DNA of 64,000 bases from Squalus acanthias (Eukaryota). This document shows, in pieces, positions 541-60,571 of the stretch. The notes below the pieces were generated by a model, which searched no databases, had not been told where the DNA came from, and saw only the letters and a program-made list of their open reading frames with translations. The position numbers and the translations under genes were made by a program. Where the stretch lies: the NCBI GenBank assembly GCA_030390025.1, contig CM059431.1, positions 155,684,001 through 155,748,000 of the forward strand, given 5' to 3'. The first letter of the stretch is position 1. Each line of letters begins with the position of its first letter.

Positions 541-1330
541 GACATTTACAACTGGAACATGGACAGTAAGAACATATTTCGATTTTTTTTCAACTGTAAA
601 CTCAGTTCCATTAAATTACAAGCGAGTTATAGCAGTACTGTTAGAAAGTTACCAATTCCTCGATCAGATCGGATTTGCGGACCCAATAAAGTTGTTGTTG
701 AGCACAATGATGCCAACTGAGCCCGTTAGATGTGGGTTCATATCTGCGATTCCTCAACTTCTGAGTGCTCTTTCTAGCGGCACTGCTGTCCCAAGGCATC
801 ATCAGAATTCGGGAGAGATAAAAATGAGAGGAAATATCACTCCACCTGCTCTTATGCATATTCGAGCGATCTGTTACAGTCCCCAACAGTGGGTTCTCCA
901 ATAGACTTGGGAATGAGGTCAGTGCATTTTGAACGTCAGTGGATCAATTAGATAAGTTTCCTAAAATAGAGACAAGGTCGGAGGGACAGTCCGTAATTTT
1001 ACCCATAATTTTTATTTTAATGAAGAGAATTGTCCTGTGAAAGACATTTTGTCGGGGATTCCTCGTCGTTACAGACCACGAGTTGACAGCATGTAAACTG
1101 TAAACTACTCAGTGCCTACTTTACATGTAACCGTTTTAGAATGCATGGTTAAAAATTGACCACGGGCATTAGAGTAACTTCCTTGTTAAGCAACCAAACT
1201 GTCTGATAGCCAATGATTTCACCACGTGTGCTGTATGAAATTAACTGAATACAAATCATGGAATTGAATTTTAATTACGTGAATTATATTCGAGTCCTGG
1301 ATGTCCAACTTCTTCCATATTAAATATATT

Positions 1331-1850
1331 GGGCCGTAGTTTCCGAATTGGAAGCTTCCCGCATGATGAGGCCTCCGATCTGGAAAAACATCTACGCACT
1401 TACCTGAAGGCTCCGGGGTGCGTATATTTCCGATGCTGGACCTCTCCAACTCCAACTACGCAGGGCCCACGTATCCTCGAGGCGCATGAGGAGCGCAAGC
1501 GTCCCAGGGATCACGTGGGCCATGGGGAGCCAATAGAAGAAGGAAATATCGCTACCTACATTTCACAGATAGACATGTCAACAAAATGAATGGAGATCAC
1601 ACCAAAAACACTGTAAAATTTAAAAAATAAAATAAAATCACCTATTTAAAATTAGTTGAAATTAAAATAAATTAAACATTTTAAAGAAATGTTTACTTTT
1701 TTGAACAAAATAATTAAAGTTTTTAGCAGGGCTAAATATAAACTTACCTTTTATTTAAGTATTTTTAAATGATGAATGAGTTCAAAAAAATGTCATAAGT
1801 TTTTCAACTCTTATCCTGGTAAAAGCAAGCCTTAAGCCTGCTTTATTGCT
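1331..1850 (+). mobile_element. Hairpin-rich MITE family A, right end missing, in NLR intron
   Basis: Starts att|GGGCCGTAGTTTCCGA; same body as the 8751, 34189 and 60572 copies; absent at the mirror position (~59760). Confidence 0.8.
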
Positions 1851-1891
1851 TTATTGCATATTCATTAATGATTTTTTTTATGTGTTTTTAG

Positions 1892-1978
1892 ACTCAATGA
1901 GAATAAACTGGGAGATTCGGGAGTGAAACGGCTCTCTGCAGTTCTAAAGAAAAATGATTGTAAAATACAGAGACTGGA
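1892..1978 (+). CDS. NLR-like gene copy A, LRR exon (87 nt): LNENKLGDSGVKRLSAVLKKNDCKIQRLE
   Basis: ttttag acceptor, gtgagt donor, symmetric 87-nt exon encoding one ribonuclease-inhibitor-type LRR typical of NLR genes. Confidence 0.88.
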
Positions 1979-2244
1979 GTGAGTAATTTTGAAAAAATAA
2001 CGAACAGCATCACCAGAGAGTTATTTATGTATAATATTACTAATTACTGTGTTATGATGATTATTCAATTTCACTATTCAATTAAAGTTAAGATCAAAGT
2101 CATTTAGAAAGTGGGAGATCATGCATATATCATGAACAGGATTTCCCCTCGATTTAGGAATTCCACAGTAATAATTTGCAAGTGGCGAAAATTTAATTTG
2201 TCTGTGTTTTTATATAATCGCTGTTTATTTTTCGATCACTGCAG

Positions 2245-2436
2245 GTTAAAATCTAACGCTCTCACAGAGGATTGTGTGGACAGTCTGGTCTCTGCTCTCC
2301 GTGTAAACCGTTCACTAATGGAGCTGGATCTGTGTAACGATAATCAGGATGGCGAACAGGCCAACAGACTGACTGACAGGTCTGTTCCGTTATTGCGCAG
2401 TCTCATCCAGAGTAATGATAATCTCAAGGAAATCAA
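2245..2436 (+). CDS. NLR-like gene copy A, LRR exon (192 nt): LKSNALTEDCVDSLVSALRVNRSLMELDL...NLKEI
   Basis: ctgcag acceptor, gtgagt donor, 192 nt in phase with the previous exon; two RI-type LRRs; inside ORF 2111..2440. Confidence 0.88.
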
Positions 2437-2681
2437 GTGAGTTTCTGTGTTAACTATTTATTATTTAAATGGTCTTTCAAGTTTAAAATATATTTTCATA
2501 TTTTTACTTCAATAAATGGATATGTAATAGAAAATAAATGATGTAATTTTTTTCTGCAGCATGTGTCTCCATCATACGAGTAAATACGTGTATTTTGAAT
2601 GAATCTAACAATGTCGCTACTCACATTGAACAGAATACTCCTGATTGATAATATTTTTTCGTTATTTTAATATTTTTTCAG

Positions 2682-2769
2682 CTGGATACACAATCAGCAC
2701 ATTGCAGAAGTAAATCAAATGTTGACTTCAATCAATATATAGGATCATTTCACTGTAATTAAATAATGA
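2682..2769 (+). CDS. NLR-like gene copy A, last coding exon with premature TAG at 2740-2742 (ancestral TGA 2767-2769)
   Basis: ttttcag acceptor; reads WIHNQHIAEVNQMLTSINI*DHFTVIK**, colinear with the open last exon of copy B. Confidence 0.7.
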
Positions 2770-3689
2770 GGATTGTTTACCATGAAGATTGTTTTCCGTA
2801 AGTATCTTAATTATTTCTTTTCGGTTACACTCGATAGAATCAGGTCAATTTTGAGCAAGTTGTCGGGACGCGATTCAGAGGAAATAAAAAAAACCACTAG
2901 GAACACGCTTGGGGGTATTTAAACTCTCGGCTGCAGATGGGGGGACTCCATGTGTCAACATTCAACATAGAAATACCGGGAACGCCGGTATCTCTGAACC
3001 GAGCCAGCAATGGAAGGATTGTATGAAAACAAAACCTTGCATTGCTTAATACCAATGCCACTAATGAGTCCGGATTGACCGCATTAATCGCCGTGCTCGC
3101 CTTCTCTGTACATTCAAATGACAGGGGCGCTTAGGCATCAGGATTACCCATTGCTTACGTCAATGTCGTCTCTGAAATCGACGTGACATTATTATCGATC
3201 AATGTACCATTATTTTTTGCAGTATTGGGTAACAATACTTAATAGAACATATTTTTCCTTTCTTAATTAATTCCTGTTGGCGAGAGGTGAAACTTATTTA
3301 AACTAAATTGGTATTATATTTTATGTTCATATGTTTGAAGTAATTATGGAAAAGGACAAATGGAACGCAAATGTTAAAAAAAACATAACTCGGAGAGTAC
3401 CAATTTCAGTGTCTTCAGAAGGGATCCATCAGTACGGTACCCTAATTATGATTGGCCAGGAAAACAGTAAACATGCAATGGCAGGACTTCGCGGCAGATA
3501 TAATAAGGTTACAAACGAAGCATATTCTCAGAAGGACGAAAGATATGGCTTCGAAAGATAAAGCTCGCTGGTGACAAAGGAAATAGACGTTGAAAGAAAA
3601 AAGAAAAATTAGGTTTATGACAAATGTCAGGTACAGAGTACTGTACAAAACCAGGCAGAATACAAGGAGTGCAGGGTGAAAATGAAGAA

Positions 3690-5290
3690 AACGATAAAGG
3701 AAGATCAAAGAGATTGTCCGAGAAATGATTATCGGGTAACATAAAATGGAACCAAAAACATCCTTTATAAATATAAAAATGAAACCGATCGTTACATGAA
3801 TGTTGGGGCCGATGAATGTTGCAGTAGAGGAGGGGAGTAGATATACTGCAAAGGTTAAAAATACAGAGAAAGGAGGTTCTATATATGTTTGTATCACTAA
3901 AATTTAACAAGTCACCCGGTCCACGTGGGATGCATCCTAGGTTGCTGAGGGAAGCTAGTTTGGAGATGCAGGAACCTCTGACCACGATCTGTCAATCTTC
4001 CTCGGAAATGGGAGTGGTGCCAGAGGACTGGAGAATTGTAAATGTTACATCCTTGTTCAAAATATTGGACAGGGATAACTCGAGTAACTACAGGTCAATC
4101 AGTCTGACAGTAGATGTGTATATTGACTATTAAAAGGCATGTGACATATTAAGACATAACATTCTTTTGCGGTAAATAGAAACGCATGGTATTAAAGAGC
4201 CGCTTTGTAACTTTGGTACCTAACTGGCTAAAAGATAGGAGGCAGAGATTAGTGGTGAACGGCTGTTAATCTGACTGGAGATAAGTATGCAGTGGAGTCC
4301 CCATGGGTTGGTATTAGGACCATTGCTTTTCTTGTTACATATACTTGACCTGAAATTGGGTATAAGCATTACAGTTGCGGAGTTTCAGCATGATAATAAA
4401 CTTGGCAACCTATTAAGTATTGAACAGGATGGTAGAAGACTTCAGAAGGACATATACAGACTGGTGTAATGGGCAGACACACGGCAGATGCAATTTAATA
4501 CGGATAACTGTGAAGTGATGCATTTGAGATGAACAACATGAAGAGTCAGTATAATCGAAACTGTAATCTTTTGAGGGTGTGCAAGAGCAGAGAGACATAG
4601 GGTGCAAAGTCACAAATCCATAAAGCAGCCAGGAAACGTTGATACGTGGGATTCGTAAACAGGATCATTGGAAAAAAATCAAGGAAGTCATGCTGAACAT
4701 TTACGTCGCTGGTTAGACCTCAGCAAAGCACTGTGCACAGTTCTGGACACAACATTTTACGCAGGATGTTAAGGCCTTGGAGAGGGTACAGAGGAGGTTC
4801 ACCAAGAAGGTACCAGGGATGAGGGTCTTCCGTTATGTGAAGAGATTGGTGAATCTATGATTGTGCTCCTTAGAGCAGAGAAGGTTAAGGCGAGACCTAT
4901 TAGGTATTCAAAATTATGACAGGGTTTGGTAGAGCAAATAAAGAGAAACTATTTCCTCTGGTAAGTGGTTCTATAAGCAGAAGTCAGCTTTTTAAAATAA
5001 TTGGCAAACGAACAAGACAGGAAATGAAGATAAATTAATTATGTGTAGGGTTGATATGATCCGGAATGCACGACCTGAAGGGTTGGTGATATTAAATAAC
5101 ATAGGTTCTTTCAGAAGGTAATTAGACTTGTATTTAACGATAACTAATTTGCTGGATTATGGGGTAAAATCTGGGGCGTGGAACTGAGTTAGACAGCTCT
5201 TTCAAAGAGCCGGCACAGGCAATATGGGCTAAAGGAACTCCTTCCGTGCTGTTAGATTCTATAATCCTAAGACTCTATGATGCTATGATT
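3690..5290 (+). mobile_element. Old degraded CR1 LINE (RT region to 3' tail), pre-dating the duplication
   Basis: RT peptides KSPGPRGMHPRLLREA, PEDWRIVNV, LGPLLFLLHI; CTATGA-type tail ~5260-5290; mirrored by 56076-57290 and 48950-49074. Confidence 0.85.
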
Positions 5291-6589
5291 CCTGTCTCTT
5301 GTGCACCGCACGTTCTCTTCACATTATGTCTGATAGACCCCCTTCTGTATTGTTAGATGCTATGATTCTATGAACTTTCGACGATACATTTCACATACTG
5401 TGCCGTATATGTATATAACTTTGATGAAATAATTTTTTAATGGCAACAACAATAAATAAACTCATGTCAAAATCGATAACATATAAGTCTAACTCATTGC
5501 TCTAAATGATGAGGTGTCCCTTAATAATGTAACTCCAACCAAGATAATGTTACGATTTCAAATTTACTACGGCTTATTTTAGCTTAACAATTATCGAATA
5601 TATCCATAGTTTTCGGAAAATAATTTCCAATATGCTAACAGGTAGAATCAGTGAAATTAGATAGCAATTTCATTGACTTTCAATATTGATAAATCACGAA
5701 GCAACAGTAATTTCTGAAGCAGAATAACCTGAAATATTCACAAACATTTTATCTGGTTGGTCCTATACTACCCTCATCTGTACATCCGTAATATTATATT
5801 AAAATTCTTACCCCTTTACACGTTTCCTGCTAAAATAAACATTTAATAAGTAGTCATGCTTGCCTCTCATTTAGGTATCAATTTATTTATGATTATGAAA
5901 TCCAATGTCCACGCTTCATTGAAAATAGCTATATACAACTTGATTTTATTTATTGCTGGATAACTACTCACACTGAAATTTTGTGATCGGAAAAGGAGAC
6001 TTGGTGCATCAACCAGTTTTTTTTCTGCTGGTCAAGCTTAATATCCGGGCGATGCAAAATCGAGTTCTGCTGGCATCAGCACTGGCTGCAGGACAATATT
6101 CATGCACGGCAATTTATATAGGATGTTTCTACTACCCATGACTGCACAGGAAAGTATAACTGAAAAAGTGCGCGCAAAAATGAGATTGGCATCATAGAGA
6201 ATCTTATGGCAAATAAAAACCGGTGAGGTCTTGAAGTTGTTGGTGAAGTTCTGGAAGGATTCGCAGAATAATTAACAGCCTGACAGGGTTCGATGGAGCA
6301 CTCATTCCATGGCCATAAAAAGCTCGATACCAGCCAATAGCATGCATAGGTACTAGAGGTCTGGAAGCTTTTAAGAGTTCCTATGGTCGATATGATGAGT
6401 AGGAGTGGGAAAATCTACATCCACGAGAGGTGATTATCCCGCTGGTTATTGTCACAGAATTCAGTGCCGCAGCTGAGGTTTCAGCTCGGGGCGATCGGTG
6501 TTCGAACCCTTAACTTTGTCATTCAGAGGCAAGAAAGTTGCCATGAAGTGGAAATCCAGAATTCAAGAGGAGTTATTATCAGGGTTGGA

Positions 6590-7030
6590 AGATCCCAATT
6601 TCAAAGGCATGCATTTTCTATGATGTATTTTTAAAATGACTTTAAATTACATAAATTAAGTATTTTAAAGAAATAATTTAACAGGGCTACAAATAAACTT
6701 AACTTTCTTTAAAGTATTTTTAAATGATAAACTAGTGGAATTGTTTTAAAACTTTTTTCAACTCTTATGCTGGTAAAAGCAAGGCCTTACACCTGCTTTT
6801 ATCAGGCTCAAGAATTGTAAGTGTTTTCTGCGGGCGGAGGGTCTCCAAAAAACTGAACTTTCCCCCCCGCAGAGTCGCTGCTCCAGGGCAGCCGATGGAA
6901 TCGTTCTTGACTGATCGGAAATGCCGGTTTCCAGCGCATTTACAGTGCGTGCCGAAAACTGGCATTTCCGTTATCCCTGCGGGTGAGTACACAGCGCGTA
7001 CACACCCTTAGGGAACGGAATTTCTGCCTC
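6590..7030 (+). mobile_element. MITE family A, right half
   Basis: GGTAAAAGCAAGG..CCTGCTTTTA and GGGTGAGTAC..GTACACACCC hairpins; ends GGAATTTCTGCCTC|aat. Confidence 0.75.
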
Positions 7031-7629
7031 AATAGCAAATGCAACGACAATTGGCTTACAGTTAAGTAGAGTTCACCTATGCCATGCGATTTCGCGTCAA
7101 GGAGCTGGACAATGATATGTGTATGCGCTGCAGCGCCGCCACTGGTCAGAGGCTGTACCGAAAGCGGAAGAACGAGATCAGCAATATCAATTAGAAATTA
7201 GACCACCAGAATGTATAATGTAGGTGCGTAGAGACATAAGATGTTTGAAATGTTACAAAAACATCTAATTCAAGAATCATTGAGAATAATATTAAAATGA
7301 ACGATGTTTTCAATTGAATACTGATTTAATTACGCAAGAGAAGATTCTGGATCACACGGTTCAGAATGTGCTCACTCCTGACTGACTGCTGGACAGCTCA
7401 GCACAAAAGTAAATTGTAAAGAATCTGATTTTGGCGACGTACTGCAGGGCTGAAATAGAGAGACAGGTGGAGATAGGAGTCACAGGTGAGGCATCTTCCT
7501 TCGTGTCCCGAACTGTTCAGTTCATATCGACTTCACGTTATGATGCTATGACTCTGTGAATTCTGTGAGTTCGATGGTATACTTGACTTAATGGTGAGTT
7601 CTCCTCGGTAATATTGTGGCAAAGTGGAG

Positions 7630-7795
7630 CTATTTGCTCACACTTCAATGCAGTGCCGAGGTGCTGCATTACTACCCGCGTTGCCGTCTTTCGGACAAGA
7701 CATTAAACCAATACGCTGTCTGCACGCTATTGTGGATATAAACGCCCCAATGGCACTATTTGAAAGAAGAGCCGGGAAGTTCCCCATGTGCCAGC
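7630..7795 (+). mobile_element. Deu-domain SINE remnant
   Basis: GTGCTGCATT..TGCCGTCTTTCGGACAAGACATTAAACC..ATGGCACTATTTGAAAGAAGAGC resembles the DeuSINE core; mirrored at 45015-45145. Confidence 0.55.
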
Positions 7796-8099
7796 CATTA
7801 CACCTACATACCGCACTGCATATTGTGCCCAATCTCGAAACTTGTATACTCGCAAACAGTGGTCCTAAATGCACATTTATTTGTTTTTCCTGTGCCAGTC
7901 AACACACCAGTTCATCACGAAATGGCCCTGATCCAACTGATGCAGAAATTCGTACAATCCCTCTGCAGACTCTTCTTTAGTCTGAACCTGCATAGGGTGT
8001 ATCTCAAGCTGTTATCGCGAGTGAGAGAAAATTTAAGAGAATAGATTCCGGAATTACAGTCATTCATCTAAACCTGTAAGCAAGATCCAGAAGATAGTC

Positions 8100-8750
8100 A
8101 TTGGTACTGAGAGGCCTGGCCCATTGATATACCCTGTACACAAGGGACGCTCTTGGAAAGTATGCCGCACCAAACAACTGGCTACCAGCTAACACTACAT
8201 ATCCCTGAGGGCTCTGCCCCACTCACGGCCCAAGAGACCATGGTACTCTGATCTTCGACAGCTTCATATTCCAGGGTAGTCTGGTCAGAATGTCTGATTA
8301 TCCCAAAAGACCAGGATATACTCATGATATACAGGCGCAATAGCCAAGGATACTCTGCAACACTGCTGGACAATAGCCCAAGTTAATATGAACATCTGCA
8401 AAGGAAAGTAGCCGAGTTTAATCTGACCGTCTGCAGAGCCCAATAGCCATAGGTACTCTGACCCTCTATATACCCCAGGTAAATCTAGACGGCCCAGTAT
8501 CGCAGGTTACTCTCACCAACTGCACAGCCTAATTTACAGTGATCCTCCAAATTAAAATGAGTAATCTGACACTCTGCATTGCCAATGACCTAGGTACTCT
8601 TACCCTCTAAAGGATACAAATTTCAAGGTATTGTTACATTCTGTGTGGTCCAGGAAACTCTGACACTCTGTGTAGCCCAGTGTACTCTGACACCCTGTGT
8701 AGCCCAGGAAACACTGTCACTCTGTTTAGCCCAGGGTACTCTTGCACTCT
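8100..8750 (+). repeat. Degenerate minisatellite, segment 1 (27-bp and ~33-35-bp units)
   Basis: TAGCCCAG recurs at 8673, 8700 and 8727; consensus ~TAGCCCAGGGTACTCTGACACTCTGTG. Confidence 0.85.
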
Positions 8751-11700
8751 GGGCCGGATTTTCCGATCGGGGGCTTCCCGCGTGCTGAAGCGTCCAATTT
8801 GGAAAAAAATCTACGCATTTACCTGAGGGCTCCCGAGGTGCGTATATGTTCCGAACCTGGTCCACTCCAACACCAATTGCGCAGGGCCCACGTATCCCAG
8901 AGGCGCATGAGGTTCACAAGCGTCCCTCGGATCACGTGGGCCATGGGGAGCCAATCAAAGAAGGGAAACTCCCTTCATACACTTGACAGATGGACCTGTC
9001 AAATATATGAAAGGAGATCACCCAAAGACACATGAAAACATTAAATAAGAAAATAAAAAAATCATATTTTTAAAATTAGTTGAAATGAGATTCAGTTAAA
9101 TATTTTAAACAAAAATTATATATTCTGAAAAAAATAATTAAAGTTTTTAAAGGATCCAATAATAAACATACCTTTTATTAAAGTATTTTTAAATGATAAT
9201 TGATGGAAAAAAATTTTTTTTTACTTTTTTCAAATCTTATACTGGTAAAAGCAGGCATTACGCCTTGCGCCTGCTTTTACCAGACATAGAACATAGAACA
9301 TAGAACAGTACAGCACAGTACAGGCCCTTCGGCCCTCGATGTGGTGCCGAGCATTGTCCGAAACCAAGATCAAGCTATCCCACTCCCTGTCATTCTGGTC
9401 TGCTCTATGTGCTTATCCAATAACCGCTAGAAAGTTCCTAAAATGTCCGACTCCACTATCACAGCAGGCAGTCCATTCCACACCCCAACCACTCTCTGAG
9501 TAAAGAATCTAACTCGGACATCCCTTCTATATCTCCCCCCATGCACCTTATTGTTCTGACCCCTTGTAACAGCTACATCCACCCGAGGAAATAGTCTCTG
9601 AACATCCACTCTATCTAGCCACCTCATCATCTTATAAACCTCTATTAATTCGCCTGTCATCCTCCTCCGCTCTAAAGAGAAAAGCCCTAGCTCCCTCAAT
9701 CTTTCCTCATAAGACCTCCCCCCCCCCCAAACCAGGCAGCATCCTGGTAAATCTACTTTGCACTCTTTCAAATGCTTCCACGTCCTTCCTATAGTGAGGT
9801 GACCAGAACTGCGCACAATATTCCAAATGTCGTCTCACCAAGGTCCTGTACAGTTGCCGCATAACCTCACGGTTCTTAAACTCAAACCCCTTGTTAATAA
9901 ACGCTAACACACTATAGGCATTATTTAGTGCTCTATCCACTTGAGTGGCAACCTTCAGAGATCTGTGGATATGAACCCCCAGATCCCTTTGTTCCTCCAC
10001 GTTCCTCAGAACCCTGCCGTTGACACTGTAATCCTAGTTCTAATTTGCCCTACCAAAATGAATCACCTCGTACTTATCGGTGTTAAATTCCATCTGCCAT
10101 TTTTCGGCCCAGCTCTGCATCCTATCAATGTCTCTTTGCAGCCTACAACAGCCCTCTACCTCATCCACTACTCCACCAATCTTGGTGTCATCAGCAAATT
10201 TACTGATCCACCCTTCAGTCCCCTCCTCGAAGTCATTGATAAAAATCACAAGCACCGACCATTATGGCACACCGCTGGTAACTGGTCTCCAGTCCGAAAA
10301 TTTTCCATCCACCACCACCCTCTGCCTTCTATGAGATAGCCAGTTACTGATCCAAGCGGCCAAATTTCCCTCTATCCCACAACTCCTTACTTTCTTCATG
10401 AGCCGACCATGGGGAACCTTATGAAACGCCTTACTAAAATCCTTGTATACGACATCAAATGCTCTACCTTCATCTACACACTTAGTTACCTCCTCAAAGA
10501 ATTCAATCAAATTTGTTAGGCAAGACTTACCCTTCACGAATCCTTTTTGACTATCCCGGATTAAGTTGCATCTTTCCAAATGGTCATACATCCTATCCCT
10601 CAGGACCTTTTCCATTATCTTACCAACCACCGAAGTAAGACTAACCGGCCTATAATTATCAGGGTCATTCCTATTTCCTTTCTTGAAGACAGGAACAACA
10701 TTCGCCACTCTCCAGTCCTCTGGCACCATCCCCGTGGACAGTGAGGAACCAAATATCAAAGCCAAAGTCTCTGCAATCTCCTCCCTTGCCTCCCAAAGAA
10801 TCATAGGATATATCCCATCTGGCCCAGGGGACTTATCGACCCTCAGGTTCTACAAAATTGCTAAAACATCTTCCCTCAGAACATCTACCACCTCCAGCCT
10901 GTCCAACTTTATCACACTCTCATCCTCAAAAACATGGCCCCTCTCCTCGGTGAACACTGACGAAAAGTATTCATTCATCACCTCTCCTATCTCTTCTGAC
11001 TCCATGCACAAGTTCCCACTACTGTCCTTGACCGGCCCTACCCTCACCCTGGTCATTCTTTTATTTCTCACATAAGAGTAAAAAGCCTTGGGTTTTTCCT
11101 TGATCCGACCCGCCAAGGACTTATCATGCCCCCTCCTAGCTCTCCTAAGCTCTTTTTTAGCTAATTCCTTGCTACCTTTTACCCCTCAATCGACCCAACT
11201 GAATCTTGTTTTCTCATCCTTACATACGCTTCCTTTTTCCTCTTGAGTAGACATTCAACCTCTTTGTGAACCATGGTTCTCTCACTCGTCCATTTCCTCC
11301 CTGCCTGACAGGGACATACCTATCAAGGACACGCAGTAATTACTCCATGAAAAAGCTCCACTTTCCTTTGTGCCTTTCCCTGATAGTTTCTGTTCCCATC
11401 TTATGCTCCCTAATTCTTGCCTAATCGCATCAGAATTACCCCTCCCCCAATTATAAACCCTGCCCTGCCGTATGGCCCTATCCCTCTCCATTGCAATAGT
11501 GAAAGTCACCGAATTGTGGTCACTATCTCCAAAGTGCTCTCCCACATACAAATCAAACACTTGGCCCGGTTCATTACCCAGTACCAAATCCAATGTGGCC
11601 CCACCACTTGTCGGCCTATCCACATATTGTGTCAGGAAACCCTCCTGCACAAACCGTTCAAAAACTATCCCATCCGAACTGTTTGACCTACAAAAGTTCC

Positions 11701-12472: not shown

Positions 12473-12474
12473 AA

Positions 12475-12800: not shown

Positions 12801-12804
12801 TTAG

Positions 12805-18660: not shown

Positions 18661-18679
18661 GGCCATAGTACAAACAAAT

Positions 18680-48945: not shown

Positions 48946-49074
48946 TTCTGTGCTATAATGAGTGCAATCGCAGAATGTCCAATCTCTCCACATTACTGAA
49001 AATCCTCATCCCTGGAACTGTCTTGCTACTCCTCCTCCCCATACTCGCCAAAGTTTGACATTCTTCCTATAAAG

Positions 49075-49357: not shown

Positions 49358-49359
49358 AT

Positions 49360-49377
49360 TGGCGTAGTCGGCAGGGA
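49360..49377 (+). promoter_or_regulatory. Primer-binding site complementary to tRNA-Ser 3' end
   Basis: TGGCGTAGTCGGCAGG, 2 nt after the LTR, is the reverse complement of CCTGCCGACTACGCCA; candidate splice donor GTGAGT at 49417. Confidence 0.85.
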
Positions 49378-50376: not shown

Positions 50377-51062
50377 AGAAGGAAAAGATCTAAATTGCAG
50401 GCTAACCAATCTGAAACTAAGCTTAGACAAAGAAAAAAGGACTTGGAAAGCCAGGAAAGCTGCTGAGATACCATGTAAAAAGAAAAAGAGGGAAATTTAA
50501 AGTTTTACCGACATGGAAGTTATTAATGTCTGTGCCTAGACAAATACAACACAAGATTTGTTGAGTGAAAGGAATCTTAAAAGGAATGCTGGGATGTAAG
50601 TTTGTGTGCAAGTGTGTGTTATAGTGTCAGAGTCTTCCTGACTGTGAAAGTTTAAGGAGTTGCAGTATTTCTTTTGTCTGAATGTCTGTCTTTAAAAATG
50701 TGTCTGTCATTTTTGTTTTGGCTCCACACACTCTTTTGTACAGAGAGCTAAATACTGTATAACCCTTTGAAAACTTGTTTTGTTGTTTTGAGTTTGTTAA
50801 TTGTTTTACAAAAAATAAGCTTCAGCCTTGAAGTCACAGTTGCCAATGTGCCTGGAAAAAAATGAATTTGAATGTCTACAAGGAATGGGTAATTGTTTCT
50901 TTGTTAATGTGGCTATGGTTTATTTCTTTATCTTTGATATGGTTAGTTTAAAAGAAAATTTTGATCTAAATTGAATTGGAGTTATTTAGGTTAATTAACT
51001 TATTAAAACCAGACTTTTATTGTGCACGGTGAAATTCGGGTTGGTGTAAATTTGTGTAGACC

Positions 51063-51260
51063 ACATTTAATAATATATTTAATGGTCTGAAACCAGACTT
51101 TAAAATATTTACAGTCTTGGATACAGAACGGGTTCTGGTCCATACCATTGGCAGATGAATCACAAGGGAAATTTGCTTTTACTGTCAGTAATAGACAGGA
51201 GTTTTATATCAGACTTTGCAGGGAAAGCAGAGCCGATTCAACAGTTAGTTAAAGAGGGGT
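51063..51260 (+). pseudogene. pol: Reverse transcriptase remnants
   Basis: Manual translation: FKIFTVLD/(frameshift)/NGFWSIPLADESQGKFAFT joined directly to thumb-like SFISDFAGKAEPIQQLVK. Confidence 0.75.
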
Positions 51261-51344
51261 CCAGTAGCGAAGGCAATGCGACGATGTGTGGCTGCAACAA
51301 ATTCTGCCCCAAGAATTAGAAAAAAACTTTGAACTACAATTTAA

Positions 51345-51755
51345 GGGCAACACGGTGGCATAGTGGTTAGCACTGGTGCCTCACAGCGCCAGAGACCCGG
51401 GTTCGAATCTAACCTCGGGTGACTGTCTGTGTGGAGTTTACACATTCTCCCCGTGTCTGCGTGGGTTTTCGCCGGGTGCTCCGGTTTCCTCCCACAGTCC
51501 AAAAATGTGCGGGTTAGGTTGATTTGGCTATGATAAATTGTGTTAGTGTTAGGGGGCGATTAAATATGTGGGGTTATTGGGATATGTTAGGGGGAATTAA
51601 ATACGTGGGGTTACGGGGGTAGGGTGGGATATGTGTACTGTGGGGATTAAAGCAGGGACAGGGTACTGGACTTGGATGATCAGCCATGATCGTATTGAAT
51701 GGTGGAGCAGGCTCGACGGGCCGAATGGCCTACTCCTGCTCCTAGATTCTATGTT
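51345..51755 (+). mobile_element. tRNA-derived SINE (V-SINE/HE1-like) inside the ERV
   Basis: A box TGGCATAGTGG, B box GGTTCGAATC, same core as 46395-46712, CR1-type tail. Confidence 0.88.
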
Positions 51756-53837
51756 AAGTTAAGCTGGTGTGTAAAACTGAGAGGAACAAAAGTTTGTTTA
51801 ACAAAGATTAAGTTTCGGTCTAAGATTTAACCTTGGAGTCGCGGTTGCTATGGTGAATTCTTCCAAAGCAGTGTGATTTGATTTGCTTAAAAGTGAAACA
51901 CTAATTTTTCTCCAGTTATATTTAATGTTTTTACAGTTTTTTGGAAAGGCATCTGAAGAATGGACAATAAGAAATATGATGTAATTTATGGTTTTCTACA
52001 AGCATGCATTGTTTTGTTTTGGTTTTTTTTCTGTTCGTGTTCAGTTACGTGAAATGACGCAAGTGCGTGCGTCTGACAATATTTCGCTCCGCCTTCTTAA
52101 AAAAAACCTGCAAAGGTGTTAACCCTTTCCACTGACAACTGTTTAAGTTATAGAAATGAAATTGAACATTGACAAGACCTGTCAGTTCAACAGTACTGCT
52201 GTTTGGATTTCGGGATAATTTTGAAATGACAAAATGAACTCAGGTACTATATATTGGGTTACTTTTGGAAAAATAAAAGGCTCTCTAAAATAATGGAAAT
52301 AAAAAGTGTTAATAACTTGGACCAAGTGAGAATGTTTAATCTATGTTTTCAATCTTAAATATTGTACTGGACAGTAAATTTCCTCCAGGGCTCATGAATG
52401 AGATATGGATGGTAATTAATAGAATGTGTAAAATGGAGAAAGGAAGTGATTGAGGGTGAGATGGAAACAGGAGAATTACACCACCAATTGAGAATTTTCC
52501 AAACTTTCTAGTGAAAGTCAGGAAAGTGTAGTTAAGAATAGTAAATTGATAGCTTTCTCTTGGAGACATTTGTTTCCCTGCCTATAATTAACTTTTTAAG
52601 GAAACTGAACTTGATAGCCTGGCCACTATCAAAGACATCGGGACCATGCAGAGGAAGATGAACAAAGACCTCCAGACAATCTTTTGATAAGATACCTGAA
52701 AGCCCGAGAAAGGCACATGTGGCATGATGTGGAGATACCGATATGAGTGTGCAAATGTGATTTGTTACATGTGATGCAGTTGCCATCCGGGAATGTATGT
52801 TGAATCTGCACTGCAGAACGGGTCTCAGACATGCTCAGTTACTTGATAACAGCAAAACATGAAATGGTTAATGTGGTTCAGGAGAGCGAGACAACTTTTA
52901 AAGCATTGACACATACTCCGTCGAGAAACTATCTAATTAATGAAACAATCAAAATAGAGTTAAATACACTGGTACCTGTTAGAGGGATTGAAATTGAAGT
53001 TGAAGCGAAGAGTTACATGAAATCTGGATTGGGACAATTGAGGGCTAAGGAGAAATCATGTTTAGTAAGAATTATCCACAAGATGGATATGAGTAAAAGA
53101 GAGATCTGGAGAATCTTTTAAGTCCATGATTTGTTGGCTAGATGTTAAAGTGTAATGTCGCTTGAAATGATGTAAGACTGAATTTGACTGTGACTGTAAT
53201 AATTGTGTTTTGTGGGTAACAGAGCGTGAGAAAAACCAGTGCGAATCCAGTATGAGGTGGTTTTGGTGGTGCCTCCTGTGTCACTACTACTGCAATTACC
53301 ATGCGTTATGGGTCTAACAGGACCTGTCCCATCAAACAGCATATTTTTAAGAATGAGCTGCACAATTATGTTGCACAATTCGGATACTACATTCCCCCGT
53401 GTCTGAGGAATTCAGTAAGCTTGTGATGCGACTGAACTCCTCCCTAAAGCATTTTTATGTTTTGGAGCAAGACAATTTGAGAATAGATATTGAAATTGAC
53501 TGCATAGGGGACAACTCAAACTGGTGGGATTTTGGGCTTAATATATCAGCACATCCTTAGATTTGTATTATTTCACACGCTCTGGTACTTCTCCAACTTG
53601 TCATGATAGTGTATTTGATATATGTAGCCTATGTAGTTTGATAAATAAGCCAATTGGGTACTCATGCCTATGACTAACCAACACCAACCCACTAATTGAG
53701 CACACCGAAAGAGAAGATCCAAAGCAATGTAGAGGAGACCCCAGGCGGGGTAACATCAGGGAAGATAGAAGAAACAGAGGATATCCCAGGCGGGGCAGAA
53801 TTGGATCATCGGAACAATGAATTGTATTTGAATAAGG

Positions 53838-54650
53838 GGTCCCTGGGAAAAGATACAAATAGACATTACGGGACCCCTACCGATCTCAAGGGGAAGGGTA
53901 TATTGCTTAGTGATAATAGATCAATTGACAAGATGGGTGGAAGCTTTCCCCACACGAAACTGCGCAGCTGCCACAGTGGCCCGGATAATAGCAGAAGAAA
54001 TAATACCGAGGCGGGGGGTTCCTATTCAAATCGACTCTGACCAGGGAGCCCATTTCACGGGAAAGGTAGTAAAGAATATCTGCGCATGGATGGGAATAAA
54101 ACAAAAATGCCACATTCCCTACCCTCCTCAGAGCTCTGGGATGGTGGAGCGAATGAACCGAACCCTAAAAACCGCATTAGCAAAGGCTCTGAGTGAAACC
54201 CACCAATTTTGGGTAGATGCTCTGCCCACAGTCCTGATGAAATTGCGAGCTATCCCTAATCGAAGGACAGGCTTATCTCCCTATGAATTAATGACAGGGC
54301 GAGCAATGCAACTCACTTATGGAATTATGACGGGGGGAAAGGAACTAGGACCCTTACTGGATAGGATCCGCCGAATTGTCCTTGAATTAATCAAGCAGTT
54401 AAAACAAATGAGACAGCAGGTTAGAGAAAGACAGGAAGAAAATGATTAAAATTTAGACTTAACTGCGTTAAGAAACGTTCCCTTAGCAGGAACAAAAGTA
54501 ATGGTTAAGGTCCTACCTACAAAACAGGGGTTTGCCCCAAGATGGGCCGGTCCTTATCAGGTCCTTATCAGTGGGGACTCGTGTGCCTGTATTGATATAA
54601 AGGGAATGGGAAGGTGGAAAAACTGGACCCAGTTAAAGGTCTATAACCCT
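53838..54650 (+). pseudogene. pol: Retroviral integrase core and GPY C-terminal region
   Basis: PWEKIQIDITGP in frame upstream of ORF 53910..54449; SDQG..VERMN with 35 residues between D and E; stop at 54447-54449, then PRWAGPYQVL. Confidence 0.92.
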
Positions 54651-54709
54651 TCACCAGTGTAGAGATGGACGCAACAAAACAAATACCGAGTGTAAGAAAT
54701 TAGGGAGAG

Positions 54710-55659
54710 TTGAAACCGTACACAGAATGGGAATGGCCCCTGATAAGGGGATTGATCTGGGCATTATGCATCATTCTGATTTGCTTCACATTGGGTTGGA
54801 GTAGATGTGAGCAGAAATACGAATTAAAGAGGACCAGGAGTGGGTACAGTGGTGCATCACTCACGTGTGGGAACTGGAATCTCGGTACAATTCCAAACAT
54901 AACCAGTGTGGGGCAATGGAAGGGTAAAATCATGATGATGAATAACGTATGGAGTAGGTTTGAAGCCTATAATAACACTTATTTCATATGTGGGCAGAAA
55001 GCTTACCCGTGGCTCCCTTTCAATTGGACGGGGTCTTTTATCTGGGGTATGTCGTACCCTTTGTACACCACTGCCTAAACCTCAAGGAACACCCAGCCTA
55101 TCGTTATAAACGAGAAATTAATGAGGCTGAAAAATACTTTGCGATTTATCTACCCCCATACGGAGTCGCAAGAGCTATTAAAGAGGTACGGTTGTTGGCA
55201 GTGATTTTAGAACAGTTTGGGAATGATACAGCAGAAGCTCTAACAGACATGAACGCCGAGATGGTAGCGATAAGGACAGTGGCGCTACAGAACCGAATGG
55301 CACTTGATTACCTCCTAGCAGAAAAAGGGGGAACATGTGCATTGATTGGGACAGAGTGCTGTACATACATTCCTGACAGTTCAGAAAATATAACTGATTT
55401 GGCTGAGCACATACAGAGGGAAGTTCGGAAGATACACGAAACCGCAGGAGCAAACTGGTGGGGATGGTTGTTTGGGGGGACATCGGTTTCATATTTGATG
55501 GATGGACTGATAATTATTCTTGTAATTGGAATTGCACTCTGTGTTACCTTGATGATTTTAAATGCATGTTGTAAGGCAGGTATGGACAGAATGATGCCGG
55601 TTGCTGTAGTCACTATTGAACCAAGCAATGAACAGCCACTACAGGATATCTATATGTAA
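54710..55659 (+). pseudogene. env: Envelope: shortened, frameshifted SU plus open gamma-type TM subunit
   Basis: YFICGQKAYPWLPFNWTG; furin site RYKR; immunosuppressive domain LQNRMALDYLLAEKGGTC; CX6CC (CALIGTECC); hydrophobic TM helix. Confidence 0.92.
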
Positions 55660-55779
55660 GGCTCTTTCCTTTTCATACAGACACCCGACACCGAGGATAG
55701 ATAGAAGGGAGAGGCGAATTTATGATAAATGCGGGAAAGTCAGTATGCCTGACCAGAATTTTTAATTTGGCAAGGTACC

Positions 55780-55791
55780 GAAAGGAGGGAG
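55780..55791 (+). promoter_or_regulatory. Polypurine tract
   Basis: GAAAGGAGGGAG immediately before the 3' LTR. Confidence 0.85.
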
Positions 55792-56075
55792 TGAAAGAGT
55801 TAATTTGAGCTCACTTTAAATTAAAATATAACGAATTAATTGCAAGCTGTTTAAGTTTGAAATGGACATACTTGTAATCATGTGATATTTTGTAACTATG
55901 TGATTGGACAACTCTTCAATAAAAGGTTGTCATTGACAACGAGAGGTCGAGAAGTGAAGCCATCAGACCAAGCAAGGTTCTGTGCCACTTCACCCAGGGA
56001 TCTCTGAATATTAAATAAACTGTTTTTTGCTTTTTACCTATAAACAGACTGGAGTGAAATAATTTCTCCCTAACA
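55792..56075 (+). repeat. 3' LTR (284 bp)
   Basis: Direct repeat of 49075-49357. Confidence 0.95.
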
Positions 56076-57290
56076 ATAATTTTGTCCAGAATTTTGCACA
56101 TTACTCCAGCTGAGGCCTAACTAGTGATTTGTAAGGTTTTACCATTACTTCCTTGTTTTGTATTGAATGTCGCTATTTACATAGCGCAGTACCACATAAG
56201 CTTTCTTAACTGCCTTATCAACTTGCCCTGCCAGCTTTAGGCATTTGTTAATATGCAACCCCATGTCACTCTGCACTTGCAACCCCTCAATATAGAACCA
56301 TTTAGATTTTACTGCCTCACCATGTAGTTCCTCTCAAAATGTATAATTTCACAGTGATCCACATTAAATCGCATCTGCTGTGTGTCTGCCACTTACACCA
56401 GTTTGTCGATGTCCTCCTGAAGTCAGCTATTGTTCTGTTCAATACTTAGTACGTTGCCAGATTTTGTATCATCCGCAAACTTCGAAATTGTAAACCTCAT
56501 GACCATGTCCAGGTCATTTATATGTTGCAAGAAAAGCAATGGTCCGTATACCGACCCTTTGGGGGACCACAATGCACATATATTTTTATTCAGAAAAATA
56601 CATCCGTTCACCACCAATCTCTGCCTACTGTTTCTTTGCGAATTATGTACCAAAGTTACCATCGGCCCTTTAATTCCGTGTGTTCCTATTTTCTGATTAA
56701 GTCTGTTATGTGTTAACTATATCAAATGCCTTTTGCAAGTCCATCAACTGCATTACATTCATCCGAACTCTCTGTTACGTTATCAAAGAAATCAATTAGG
56801 TTAGCCAGACACGATTTGTCTTTAATAAATCCGTGCCAGCTGCCTCTTTTTAGGCAGTGCTTCTCCATGTGAGAATTTTTTGGGCAATGAACTCTACCAG
56901 TTCTCCAATCACTGATTAGACTGATTGGTCAAAATTTACCAGGCCTATCCCTCACACCTTTGCTGCACATGGGTGTACATTTGTAATTCTACAGTCCTTT
57001 GGCAGCACTCCCATTTCCAATCAGGATTAAAAGGTTGTGGTCCGAGGTTCGTGTACCTTCACCCCAGCTTCCCTCAGCAGTCTAGAATGTTTCCCACATG
57101 GACCGGGTGACATGTTACCTATTTAGCAACTAATTTCTGTCTATTTTTATCTTTTACAATATCTCATCTCCCCCGCCTTTCCTGCAACATTAATCGACCC
57201 CACAATCCGTAAAATTATCCTTATGCTTTTATATGTTTATAAAAGATTTTTTGGTTTCATTTTAGGTTACCCGATAATCTTTTCACGTAC
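56076..57290 (-). mobile_element. Old CR1 (mirror of 3690-5290), split by the ERV; continues at 48950-49074 and ~47230-47530
   Basis: ORF 56423..56662 (GPLLFLQHIND, FADD) aligns with 4287..4469. Confidence 0.85.
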
Positions 57291-57644
57291 AACTCTGAAT
57301 ATACAGAGAAATCGGGCAGGACGATTATTGAGGAAAAATCCGGACTCATGAGTGGCATTGATAGGAATCAGTGTAATTTATGTCTCTAATGAAACCCTTC
57401 CATTGTTTGGTTCAGCTTTTACAGAAACCGGCATTCCCGGTATCACTATGTTGAATGTTGACACTGCGGCCCCACCTGTCTGTGGCAATAAGTTTAAATA
57501 TCCCGAAATTACACAGTTCCTCGTTTTCGTTCCCCTCTGGAAAACGTCCCCACAACTTGCTTAAAATGGGCCAGATTCAATCGAGACTAACCTACAAAAT
57601 ATACTTAAAATATTTACATAAAAATGCTCATGATAAAAAATCCT

Positions 57645-57732
57645 TCATTCTGTAATTACAGTTAAAAGATCCGATTCTGAGATTGTCTTCAGAATTTGCT
57701 GTTCTACTGCGATGTGTTCATTGTGCATCAAA
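57645..57732 (-). CDS. NLR-like gene copy B, last coding exon: LMHNEHIAVEQQILKTISESDLLTVITE*
   Basis: ttttcag acceptor, in phase with the previous exon, open to TGA. Confidence 0.75.
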
Positions 57733-57902
57733 CTGAAAAAAAAAATAATATAACGAAAAATTGTTATCAGTAAGCAGTATTCTGTTCACTGTGAGTGACA
57801 ATATTGTTAGATTCATTCAAAACATGTGTTTGCTCGTGTGAATGAGACAAATTCTCCACAAAATAATTAGTTTATTTATTACCCATTACTAGTATATTTA
57901 TT

Positions 57903-59100
57903 AAGAACAGAAGAATGTAATAATTAGGAGCAGGAGTAATCCATACAGCCTCTCGAGCCTGCTCCGCCATTCAATATACTCATGGCTGATCTTCAAACTC
58001 AACTCCACCTTTCTGTTGTATCCCCATATCCCTAGTTTCCCCTGGTGTCCATAGATCTATCTCAGCCTTTGAATGTATTCAACGAATGACCATCCATGGC
58101 ACTTTGGGGCAGAGAATTCCAAAGATTCACAAAACCTCCTCATGTTAGTCTTAAAAAGCCGTCCTCTTATCCTGAGACTATGCCCCCTAGTTCCAAACTC
58201 TCCAGACAGGGGAAACAATCTCTCAGCAAACGATCCTGTCACTACCCCTCAGAATATTATATGATTTAATGAGACCACCTCTCATTCTTCTAAAGTCCAA
58301 AGAGTACAGACCCAATCCACTGAACCTCTTCTCATGGGACAGCACTCTCATCCCAGTAATCAATCTAGTGAACCCTCGTTGCCCCCCCTCTAGGTCTAAT
58401 ATATCCTTCCTTAGGAAACTGTGCCGAGTACTCCAGGTGTGGTCACACCAGCACCCTGTACAATTGCAGCAACACTTCCTTACCGTTGCACTCCAACCCT
58501 CTAGCAATAAATGCCGACATGTCATTTGCCTTCCTAAATGCTTGCTGTACCTGCATGCTAACACTCTGTGTCTCTTGAACTAGGATACCAACTTTAATAG
58601 ATTCTCACCATTTAAATATTTTCTGTTTTTCTATTCTTCCTACTAAAGTGAATAACCGCACATTTCCTTACATTATACTCCATCATCCACATTATTGCCC
58701 ACTCATTTAACCTGTCTATTTCCCTTTACAGGCTCTTTGTGTCCTCCGCACATCTTTCACTTACACCTAGCTTTGTATCGTCAACAAACTTGGATACCAT
58801 CCACTCGGTCCCTTCATCTCGGTCAATAATATAGATTGTAAATATTTGAGGCCCAAGCACTGATTCTTGCGGCATACCACTAGTTACATCTTACCAATCT
58901 GAAAATGACCCGCTTATCCCTACTCTCTGTTTTCTGTCTGTTAAATCATTCTTTATCCAAGCTAATACATTACCCCAAACCCATATGCCCTAAACTTGCT
59001 AAACAACGTTTTAATCTGCACCTTATCGAATGCCTTTTGAAAATCCGTATGTACTACATCGATTGGAAAACTCCTTTAACTACCCTGCTAGATACGGCCT
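57903..59100 (-). mobile_element. 5'-truncated CR1 in the last intron of NLR copy B
   Basis: ORFs 58223..58564 and 58057..58242; CR1 tail at ~57905-57990; absent from the copy A intron. Confidence 0.88.
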
Positions 59101-59175
59101 GAAAGTTAAAGTATAGAAAAATAATTTAATCTTGAAAAACTAATTATTACACAAATATTTATCACGGGAAGTTAC

Positions 59176-59367
59176 CTGATTTCCTTCAGATTACAGCTAC
59201 TCTTAATGAGACTGCGCAATGACGGAACAAATTTGTCAGGTAATCTGTTCGCCTGTTCCCCATACTGATTATCATTACTCAGGTTCAGCTCCATCAGTGA
59301 ACCGTCTACACGGAGGGCAGATACCAGACTTTCCACACAATCATCTGTGAGAGCGTTAGATCTCAAC
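59176..59367 (-). CDS. NLR-like gene copy B, LRR exon (192 nt): LRSNALTDDCVESLVSALRVDGSLMELNL...NLKEI
   Basis: ctgcag/gtaact splice sites; same length and phase as 2245-2436; inside ORF 59172..59483. Confidence 0.88.
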
Positions 59368-59632
59368 CTGCAGTGATCGAAAAATAATGAGTGATTATAT
59401 AAAACGCACACACATTCGCAAGTTAAAATATTCACCACTTGTAAATAATTGCTGAGGAATTCCAAAATCACGGGGGGGATCATGTTCAGGATACATATAT
59501 GCCTTCCCTATTTCTAAATTATTTTCGTCTTAAAGTGAATTGAATAGTGAGAGTTGCTCCTCAGGATTAACACAGTAACTTGATTTTTTTTACATAACTG
59601 TGTTGTTCGATATTTAAAAAAACAATACTCAC

Positions 59633-59719
59633 TCCAATCTTTGTATTTTACAATCATTTTTCATCAGTACTGCAGAGAGCCGTTTCAATCCCGAATCTCT
59701 CAGTTTATTCTCATTGAGT
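59633..59719 (-). CDS. NLR-like gene copy B, LRR exon (87 nt): LNENKLRDSGLKRLSAVLMKNDCKIQRLE
   Basis: ttttag/gtgagt splice sites; 80/87 nt identical to 1892-1978. Confidence 0.88.
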
Positions 59720-60571
59720 CTAAAAACAAATTTAAAAAATCAATAATGTATATGGATTAATGCATCAGACAGGATATATTATTTAGTAAGCTACATATTT
59801 GAGGTTGGACACCTTTGGTATCCTAGTCAGGAATAAAAGACATCTCATTCAAAAACAATTCTATGAGTTGCATTAAGTTAATTAGATATAGAGCATGTGT
59901 TAAAATCAGTGACCATCACAGAGTGCAGTTGCTTGACCCGCCAGTTACTCTAATGCCGGAGATCAAGATTTATACATGCATCTTAAAACGATTGTATGTA
60001 AAGTAGGCATTGCGTAGTTAACAGGTTAAATACAGTAAACCTGCGGTCTTTCTCGAAGAAGAAGCCCCGACAAATGCACCTCACAGGACGATTCTCTTTA
60101 ATAAAACGTTAAATATGGGTACAATCCCTATCTCCGAACTTGTCCCTATTTTTTTAGAAAGTTATCAATTTGATGCTCTGAGGTTCACAAATGCACTTAG
60201 TCCATGCCCAATAACCGCAGCATTTTCTGAGACGGGGTTAGTAAGAAATCACTCTAATGTGTATAAGGACAGATGGAGTGATATTCAATCGCATTATCCT
60301 TTCCTACCGGCCTCTGATTGTGCCATAACATAATTGTACAGCTGGAATGAAGTACTCAGCATTGAGGAGTCGCAGAAGCGAACAAACATTTAACTGTCTT
60401 ACATGGCATAATTGAGCTCAACAACAATGTCATGATCGAGGAATTGGAATCTTTCAAATTGTACAGCAACATATCGCTTATAATTTAATCAAACTGGAAA
60501 ACAAAACAATTGTATTTTTTATTTTCTAAATAAAAGCCAAAAATGTTCGTGCAGACAATGTACCAGTGGCA

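Follow-up and report, generated by a model that had tools for sequence, protein, structure and literature searches.

An old tail-to-tail inverted duplication of the 3′ region of an NLR gene in Squalus acanthias

How did the 3′ ends of two NLR genes come to face each other across a mirror-symmetric stretch of shark DNA, and what has happened to the two copies since? We examined 64,000 nucleotides of the Squalus acanthias genome (the window), which the initial annotation had described as two colinear reverse-complement arms. The arms and their main intergenic features are as follows.

551..22402, plus strand: left arm of the inverted duplication; inner limit at about 22393-22402; outward, homology stops at repeats and the window edge
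25341..60567, minus strand: right arm (mirror copy), entering MITE, CR1 tail and Penelope-like DNA until the window end
6118..8202, plus strand: non-repeat intergenic DNA with what we take to be a Deu-SINE-like element (7561-7800) and a left-only MITE; mirror copy 46316-44586
8203..18654, plus strand: satellite of 27-34-bp units, ~4.4 kb net, broken by left-only MITEs and CR1s
21789..22402, plus strand: non-repeat DNA at the inner end of the arm; its mirror copy, 27093-25341, is interrupted by a CR1 found only on the right (25463-26311)

All six anchors with coordinates aligned as reverse complements: 600-670/60430-60500 (53 of 69 aligned bases matching), 4260-4500/56370-56600 (174/229), 7070-7490/45260-45740 (331/405), 20197-20330/31740-31880 (102/134), 21900-22140/26450-26705 (174/230) and 22302-22392/25351-25441 (75/91, ungapped). 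When the left arm was cut into 42 tiles of 150 bp outside annotated repeats, 28 matched best to the right arm in inverted orientation and 14 had no match, with no break in order, while none of the 42 matched in direct orientation within the window. The arm alignment was built as anchored segments, and all 21 hand-delimited segments exceeded their shuffled controls (z 7.5-45). The satellite likewise matched in mirror orientation only (87 inverted HSPs, 0 direct), its mirror pieces lying between 39645 and 44585 (~1.3 kb net). We also looked for the signs that would speak against symmetry, matches restricted to repeats and exons or a non-colinear order, and saw neither; the mirror observation therefore stands. 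These data support an old inverted segmental duplication of the 3′ region of an NLR gene, with the copies tail to tail.

With the satellite excluded, alignable DNA makes up ~6.15 kb of the left arm (21.9 kb in all) and ~6.2 kb of the right arm (35.2 kb). Several pieces of 0.3-0.9 kb have been kept in one arm only (e.g. 3117-3708 and 5202-6117), and no match was found for 5190-6130, 18600-19750 and 20450-21140 in their respective mirror intervals. Rfam gave 0 matches in the window, the Deu-SINE-like element included. The outermost arm match is 551-590/60567-60528, beyond which nothing in 1-600 matched 60500-64000; at the limits 545 and 60570 proposed earlier, homology runs into repeats and the edge of the window, and they need not be breakpoints.

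Could the symmetry be an assembly artefact, or a chance alignment of dispersed repeats? The centre is spanned by none of the listed contigs, as an artefact would allow, but the probability of either is practically negligible: the non-repeat DNA is colinear, the arms differ by 24% and carry distinct insertions, unlike artefactual fold-backs, and low-depth contigs from run X1 are 95-99% identical to both inner arms and to the CR1a fragment of the spacer. The contigs over 19000-28200 are dominated by repeats, the listed joints connect dispersed CR1 or RTE copies, and gaps in the contig cover carry no weight.

Near its outer end, each arm holds three exons, the last coding ones of an elasmobranch 'NLRP3-like' NLR; their frames are open, and the splice sites are canonical in both arms.

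1892..1978, plus strand: left exon A, 87 nt, one LRR, AG/GT intact
2245..2436, plus strand: left exon B, 192 nt, its LRR carrying the SND..QAN insertion of the family
2682..2742, plus strand: left terminal coding exon C, its stop a few residues before that of the right copy
59633..59719, minus strand: right exon A
59176..59367, minus strand: right exon B
57645..57732, minus strand: right terminal coding exon C, ending LTVITE-stop as in several homologues

Two of what had been called three LRR exons are LRR exons, while the third is a C-terminal cap exon. Over 112 codons compared between left and right, dN/dS was 0.35 (95% CI 0.19-0.65) with dS of 0.42, and the exons of both copies have been under purifying selection for much of the time since the duplication. 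No RNA match was listed for 1800-3300, which speaks neither for nor against expression.

The exons are C-terminal RI-type LRR exons homologous to NACHT proteins, with tblastn E values down to 4e-21. The same LRR insertion and C-terminal end are found in elasmobranch genes carrying the automatic RefSeq name 'NACHT, LRR and PYD domains-containing protein 3-like', and proteins from Heterodontus, Scyliorhinus, Mustelus and Cetorhinus share 57-67% identity with exon B. Among the 10 full-length relatives scanned, NACHT was present in 9 and PYD in none. Whereas most of these relatives carry NACHT, the two window copies are seen only as 3′ exons, with the NACHT and N-terminal domains and the upstream exons falling outside the window: no NACHT match was obtained within it with 12 queries at E<=1, and the isolated exon peptides gave no Pfam match. 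In a protein tree of the best 32 of 120 proteins covering exons A and B (25 distinct once duplicates were removed), the left and right copies were sisters (support 72/53). They possibly belong to the NLRP-related expansion described for the whale shark in the available text of PMC8455134.

The order of events can be read from the transposons, of which roughly 25 insertions are arm-specific by hand count.

3327..5290, plus strand: CR1 predating the duplication; mirror copy split by later insertions (57296-56080, 49075-48932, 47533-47228)
20050..20720, plus strand: second CR1 predating the duplication; mirror copy ~32330-31615
49073..56077, plus strand: right-only endogenous retrovirus inside a shared CR1, LTRs 96.9% identical

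Each of these two shared CR1s forms a reciprocal best match with its mirror copy: the first pair scores 0.67, against 0.46-0.63 to other CR1s, and the left copy of the second matches its mirror at 0.68, against 0.48-0.53 to other CR1s. Empty sites in the opposite arm were seen for the CR1s at 57902-59102 and 25463-26311, and the retrovirus has no long intact ORFs. Decay was 340/1380=0.246 in CR1s common to both arms and 558/3794=0.147 in arm-specific ones (the left CR1 at 18727-20050, which misses most of its RT region, was excluded); no arm-specific CR1 scored was as decayed as the shared ones, and this gives the insertion order independently. Older insertions thus sit at mirror positions and younger ones in a single arm, the pattern of an inverted segmental duplication.

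Over 5,963 aligned bases the arms are 76% identical (ungapped; K2P 0.30), and identity is homogeneous over the 18 non-exonic segments (chi-square p=0.16). The highest non-exonic 100-column window reached 86, and the longest exact run, 28 bp, lies at a splice site and exon. By these three measures (homogeneity, windows and exact runs) we detected no recent gene-conversion tracts between the arms and, since identity is uniform outside the exons, the earlier view that they have not been homogenised recently is borne out. The term palindrome suits the geometry, but at 76% the arms lack the very high identity of a palindrome maintained by conversion (Y/X type). An absolute date was attempted with the epaulette-shark pedigree rate of 7e-10 per generation given in the accessible part of PMC10587355; on K=0.30 it yields ~2e8 generations, implausibly old, and was dropped. 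No Ks value for calibration was found in the part of 10.1101/2022.10.17.512540 available to us.

As the initial annotation had stated, symmetry continues to within ~3 kb of the centre and the spacer (22403-25340, 2,938 bp) is almost all transposon-derived (~2,830 bp). It is composed of five pieces.

22403..22415, minus strand: probable 13-14-bp CR1a remnant left of the MITE; in six CR1 copies, the homologous site agrees with it at 4-9 of 14 bases
22416..23158, unstranded: MITE with ~15-bp terminal inverted repeats, presumably PIF/Harbinger-like
23159..23487, minus strand: CR1a fragment truncated at both ends
23488..25234, plus strand: CR1b, 5′-truncated, 3′ tail kept
25235..25340, unstranded: 106 bp for which the rest of the window offered no convincing match

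The best local scores of the 106-bp piece in the window were 27-31, and it is not an upstream continuation of CR1a. Within CR1b, 23889-23983 repeats 24484-24578 as a 95-bp inverted copy. We considered whether CR1a could be the inverted 5′ part of CR1b left by twin priming and ruled this out, as their ORF2 positions overlap and they are only 44% alike.

The age of these elements bears on whether the spacer was originally very short, as had been proposed. The decay of CR1b (126/486=0.259) equals that of the shared CR1s (p=0.58) and exceeds that of the arm-specific ones (p=2e-9), also when only the three oldest of these are taken (0.198, p=0.006); CR1a (28/120=0.233) behaves similarly (p=0.83 and p=0.013) but does not differ from the three oldest (p=0.34), and throughout the test is confounded by subfamily distance. 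Stops and frameshifts per 100 codons (4.4 in CR1b, 2.4-4.5 in shared and 0-3.9 in arm-specific CR1s) separate the classes poorly. Since the spacer CR1s are as decayed as the shared ones (0.23-0.26 vs 0.25) and more so than the arm-specific ones (0.15), ~2.1 kb of spacer DNA may go back to the time of the duplication, although deletions could have shifted the spacer's length either way; the decay figures do not support the proposal of a very short original spacer.

That proposal in its full form holds that fold-back first gave a near-perfect palindrome, its arms at most ~100 bp apart, and that CR1 and MITE insertions then widened the spacer while deletions in the centre trimmed it; it appears quite unlikely. 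It would account for the transposon origin of ~2,830 of the 2,938 bases; yeast fold-back junctions lie at short inverted repeats with 40-80-bp loops, and their spacers are lengthened by later rearrangements (PMC10766186, as far as accessible). An insertion of CR1b soon after the event would also be compatible with the decay test, and contig depth at 92% likeness in run X1 (2,000-132,000 for CR1b against 47-104 for shared CR1-2) would fit a younger or larger family. Against it stand the decay of CR1b, above the three oldest arm-specific CR1s and equal to the shared ones, and the innermost 126 bp, which at 81% identity are not significantly more similar than the remainder (p=0.16).

We favour instead a one-step inverted duplication with an old spacer of ~2 kb, a junction near 22400, the right copy as parent and arms that evolved independently afterwards, to which we assign a probability of about 0.45. 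A single old event would have duplicated an elasmobranch NLRP3-like NLR gene, its 3′ part at least and probably all of it, together with roughly 8-12 kb of downstream DNA, and placed the copy inverted, ~2 kb from the downstream end of the parent. It probably did so by fold-back, template switching or a comparable inverted insertion in one step. The spacer would be mostly pre-existing flanking DNA, that is, two old CR1s and the 106 bp of unique sequence. A one-step origin is supported by the colinear mirror chain, which reaches 22402/25341, and most vertebrate inverted duplicate pairs were apparently born inverted rather than inverted later, according to the available text of PMC3194840.

The new junction would most likely lie near 22400, where CR1a appears to be cut in mid-ORF; the right copy would therefore be the parent. 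On insertion, a LINE normally retains its 3′ end. By way of the 13-14-bp remnant beyond the MITE, CR1a would stop in mid-ORF2 at the inner edge of the left arm, but this is suggestive only; the 14-bp remnant is weak evidence for the junction, and the truncation may be a later deletion, deletions being common in both arms. Junction repeats of 5-6 bp are unrecognisable at 0.3 substitutions per site. After the event, the arms accumulated ~0.30 substitutions per site with no detectable conversion, several deletions of 0.3-0.9 kb, growth of the left satellite and roughly 25 arm-specific transposon insertions, which spread ~12 kb of still-alignable DNA across 60 kb.

The MITE beside this junction raises the possibility that aberrant (alternative-end) transposition by its DNA-transposon family produced an inverted duplication ending at the element, a mechanism known from maize Ac/Ds. 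The MITE begins 13 bp from the inner edge of the left arm, and its flanks (TGT vs AAT) form no clean 3-bp target duplication, while AAT lies on both sides of two other copies; the family, present at least 8 times in the window, is old, since copies match the spacer one at 61-75%. However, CR1a seemingly resumes beyond the MITE, which would therefore be a plain insertion, arm homology ends short of its terminal repeat, and decay alone could erase a 3-bp duplication, so that we regard this origin as very improbable.

An alternative is a head-to-tail tandem duplication in an NLR cluster that was later rearranged by an inversion whose two breaks fell downstream of the genes and, in homologous coordinates, ~2 kb from each other; we consider this somewhat unlikely. 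It gives the same local mirror picture as a fold-back, and the outer junctions that would discriminate between them lie outside the window. The truncated, oppositely oriented spacer CR1s and the weak sister support of the two copies (72/53) agree with it, but it needs two breakpoints at nearly the same homologous position, none of the 42 non-repeat tiles has a direct-orientation match in the window, and this route predicts too few inverted pairs, 4-15 times more being observed (PMC3194840, available part).

As a tail-to-tail pair, the locus has known counterparts. Tail-to-tail pairs make up 20.8%, 15.1% and 12.2% of linked duplication events in human, mouse and zebrafish, respectively (PMC3194840, same part); at 12-21% of linked vertebrate duplications, the pair is ordinary. 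Like those, it consists of multi-exon, nearby, inverted paralogues with dS of ~0.4; unlike in the accessible treatment there, which does not address spacer anatomy, non-coding colinearity is traceable here to within 2.9 kb of the centre. Mammalian sex-chromosome palindromes have a similar geometry, e.g. human Y P8, where arms of 38.0 and 37.4 kb flank a 3.4-kb spacer and each carries one gene towards its outer end, but their arms stay highly identical via gene conversion (PMC6790999, in the part available), whereas the window arms, at 76% identity, give no sign of conversion and carry many arm-specific insertions. Fold-back/ODIRA duplications and triplications also have inverted arms across a short non-duplicated spacer that is later lengthened; they are defined, however, by short inverted repeats with 40-80-bp loops and a third direct copy (PMC10766186, same part), neither of which can be seen here, and the spacer of this locus was probably ~2 kb originally.

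The window is a real and well-preserved old mirror duplication, yet an ordinary way for gene clusters to grow: a clean worked example of an inverted gene duplication with its arms left diverging, and no new principle. We give rather long odds to the stronger reading, that the centre is a fossil germline fold-back junction with a legible break (CR1 cut at ~22400, right copy parental), that two selected NLR genes were kept mirrored without conversion, perhaps since before shark families split, and that such births could be a regular route of growth for the multi-megabase shark NLR cluster, the arms then serving as an internal clock for transposon waves in sharks. Our literature search, with subscription papers mostly and supplements outside its scope, found no report of shark NLR genes paired in inverted orientation, and the accessible text of PMC8455134 treats the shark NLR expansion solely at gene-tree level. 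The pair can serve as a natural control, its arms giving neutral divergence since the duplication and a before/after order for ~25 transposon insertions. If many short-spacer mirror pairs occur across the cluster, this would bear on the origin of the shark NLR expansion.

The mirror symmetry in the window is real. Self-BLAST returned a chain of inverted matches running from 603-1327/60496-59795 through 22277-22402/25467-25341, and the six anchors for which the initial annotation gave coordinates were all recovered as inverted matches, with 22302-22392/25351-25441 agreeing at 75 of 91 positions. When the left half was cut into 150-bp tiles, 42 of which lay outside annotated repeats, the best non-self match was inverted and within the right arm for 28, with no break of order among them; none of the 42 had its best match in direct orientation, and 14 had no match at all. 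The palindrome thus has the colinear, non-repeat homology on which the initial annotation had made it depend. All 21 hand-delimited segments scored far above shuffled controls (z 7.5-45), and the satellite matched its right-hand pieces in mirror orientation only (87 inverted HSPs vs 0 direct). The parts concerned are:

551-22402 (approximate start), + strand: left arm
25341-60567, - strand: right arm, the mirror copy
8203-18654 and 39645-44585: shared decayed satellite with 27- and 33/34-bp units, the left tract about three times the length of the right

Alignable DNA, with the satellite excluded, amounts to about 6.15 kb per arm, the arms themselves being 21.9 kb (left) and 35.2 kb (right) long; the remainder consists of arm-specific transposons, satellite (4.4 kb left vs 1.3 kb right) and stretches surviving in one arm only. 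The satellite was the target of many large insertions in both arms. By an approximate hand count there are about 25 arm-specific insertions, and empty sites are clean for the right-only CR1s at 57902-59102 (interrupting left 2509/2511) and 25463-26311 (interrupting left 22277-22279). The outermost mirror match is 551-590/60567-60528. Since the right side beyond it, up to the window end, is composed of MITE, CR1 tail and Penelope-like DNA, 551 and 60567 are limits of detectable homology within the window, not demonstrated breakpoints.

Arm-to-arm identity was 75.6% over 3,581 aligned bases of non-repeat non-coding DNA (K2P 0.30) and 74.4% over 1,810 aligned bases of the shared CR1s (copies at mirror sites in both arms), both slight overestimates owing to gap-tolerant alignment. 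Identity was homogeneous over 18 non-exonic segments (p=0.16); each of the five highest-scoring sliding windows, out of 99, overlaps an exon, the non-exonic maximum is 86/100, and exact runs reach 28 bp at most. These values bear out the earlier view that the arms were not recently homogenised. Recent conversion is absent; early conversion may have occurred. Dating in years by one pedigree rate was rejected, as the age obtained was implausible.

Each arm carries the last three coding exons (A, B and C) of an elasmobranch 'NLRP3-like' NLR. In both arms the splice sites of these exons are canonical and the frame stays open after splicing; the coordinates are:

1892-1978, 2245-2436, 2682-2742, + strand: left exons
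59719-59633, 59367-59176, 57732-57645, - strand: right exons

The gene 3′ ends face one another about 55 kb apart. Exon B matched a Scyliorhinus torazame protein (67%, E 7e-15), the full-length relatives of which are elasmobranch models, the majority named 'NLRP3-like', with NACHT in 9 of the 10 scanned. With 12 such proteins as queries, no NACHT was found in the window and only exons A and B matched. Exon C was identified by its end, at which the right copy agrees with homologues; in the left copy the stop comes a few residues sooner. Over 112 codons the two copies share 73% protein identity, with dS 0.42 and dN/dS 0.35 (95% CI 0.19-0.65), so both were under selection through much of their history. 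The tree placed them as sisters with weak support (72/53). In right exon B (59176-59367) the LTD motif has a proline where aligned relatives have threonine, a possible sign of relaxed selection.

Between the arms lies the spacer:

22403-25340: spacer, made of 13 bp, a 743-bp MITE, a 329-bp CR1 fragment on the - strand (CR1a), a 1,747-bp CR1 on the + strand (CR1b) and 106 unique bases

CR1 age was scored in 14 copies as decay at constrained first and second codon positions, a measure that includes subfamily distance. Decay was 340/1380 = 0.246 (range 0.240-0.281) in shared CR1s and 558/3794 = 0.147 (0.071-0.211) in eight arm-specific copies. CR1b (126/486 = 0.259) is on a par with the shared CR1s (p=0.58) and more decayed than even the three oldest arm-specific copies (p=0.006), whereas CR1a (28/120 = 0.233) is too short to be separated from the latter (p=0.34). 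Counting against an old CR1b are the share of subfamily distance in the measure, the overlap of stop and frameshift counts between CR1 classes, and a depth of contigs at 92% likeness that is far greater over CR1b than over CR1-2, one of the shared copies. Taken together, the data probably give about 2.1 kb of the spacer much the same age as the duplication, and the 'originally very short' spacer of the initial annotation is therefore unsupported; its near-perfect palindrome, widened afterwards, is a doubtful origin. The pair would most simply be explained by inverted duplication in one step, with about 2 kb of spacer, an explanation held tentatively (probability roughly 0.45). Fold-back, judged by the criteria of PMC10766186, is a possible route to such a pair. 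Tandem duplication followed by inversion is somewhat unlikely, and a rearrangement driven by MITEs highly improbable; these mechanisms predict different outer junctions, located beyond the window's ends.

With the MITE taken out, CR1a apparently extends a further 14 bp, up to the edge of the arm (six copies match at 4-9 of these 14 bases), and breaks off in mid-ORF2; this end would be either the duplication's new junction, making the right copy the parent, or the result of a later deletion. Within CR1b, 23889-23983 is a 95-bp inverted copy of 24484-24578, 500 bp downstream (92.6% identical), that replaces a few CR1 bases; it resembles a product of templated repair, far more recent than the arms. 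An assembly artefact is very unlikely, because low-depth contigs of run X1 cover both inner arms and CR1a, although none of these contigs spans the centre. Against the window, the six such contigs on 19992-26958 carry 36 differences in 1,545 bases (2.3%), a lot for a single species label; their source may be a divergent haplotype or a closely related organism.

Other repeats are listed below; Deu-SINE, Harbinger-like, Penelope-like, RTE and L2 are presumptive names based on sequence features:

49073-56077: endogenous retrovirus with 287-bp LTRs (96.9% identical), splitting a shared CR1 in the right arm
1326-1846, 6615-7045, 8750-9288, 12223-12488, 22416-23158, 29699-31471, 34192-34928, 60575-61214: MITE family, at least 8 copies
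61420-64000, - strand: Penelope-like element, long frames interrupted by single stops

In the retrovirus, a primer-binding-site-like stretch follows the first LTR, the gag/protease, integrase and envelope-like frames are broken, and SINE and CR1-tail sequence has inserted at 51345-51744. The MITEs share terminal inverted repeats of about 15 bp, internal hairpins and AAT/ATT target sites; two lie within CR1 reverse-transcriptase regions and one hosts a nested GC-rich element. In this nested complex, a 124-bp direct duplication (30663-30786 and 31297-31420) is very recent, since its copies are exact. In the Penelope-like element, 61976-62037 matches 63937-63998 as a short terminal repeat. Two 240-bp SINE copies (46473-46712 and 51345-51584), mutually inverted and 89% identical, are dispersed repeats outside the mirror chain.

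In zebrafish, mouse and human, according to PMC3194840, tail-to-tail pairs account for 12-21% of linked duplication events and for the most part were apparently inverted from birth. Human Y palindrome P8 resembles the shark pair in geometry, but its class, as described in PMC6790999, is defined by high identity and conversion, both of which the shark pair lacks. Our literature search found no report of the present pair; an NLRP-related expansion in sharks is already published (PMC8455134). The inverted NLR duplication of this shark is real, well preserved and ordinary.
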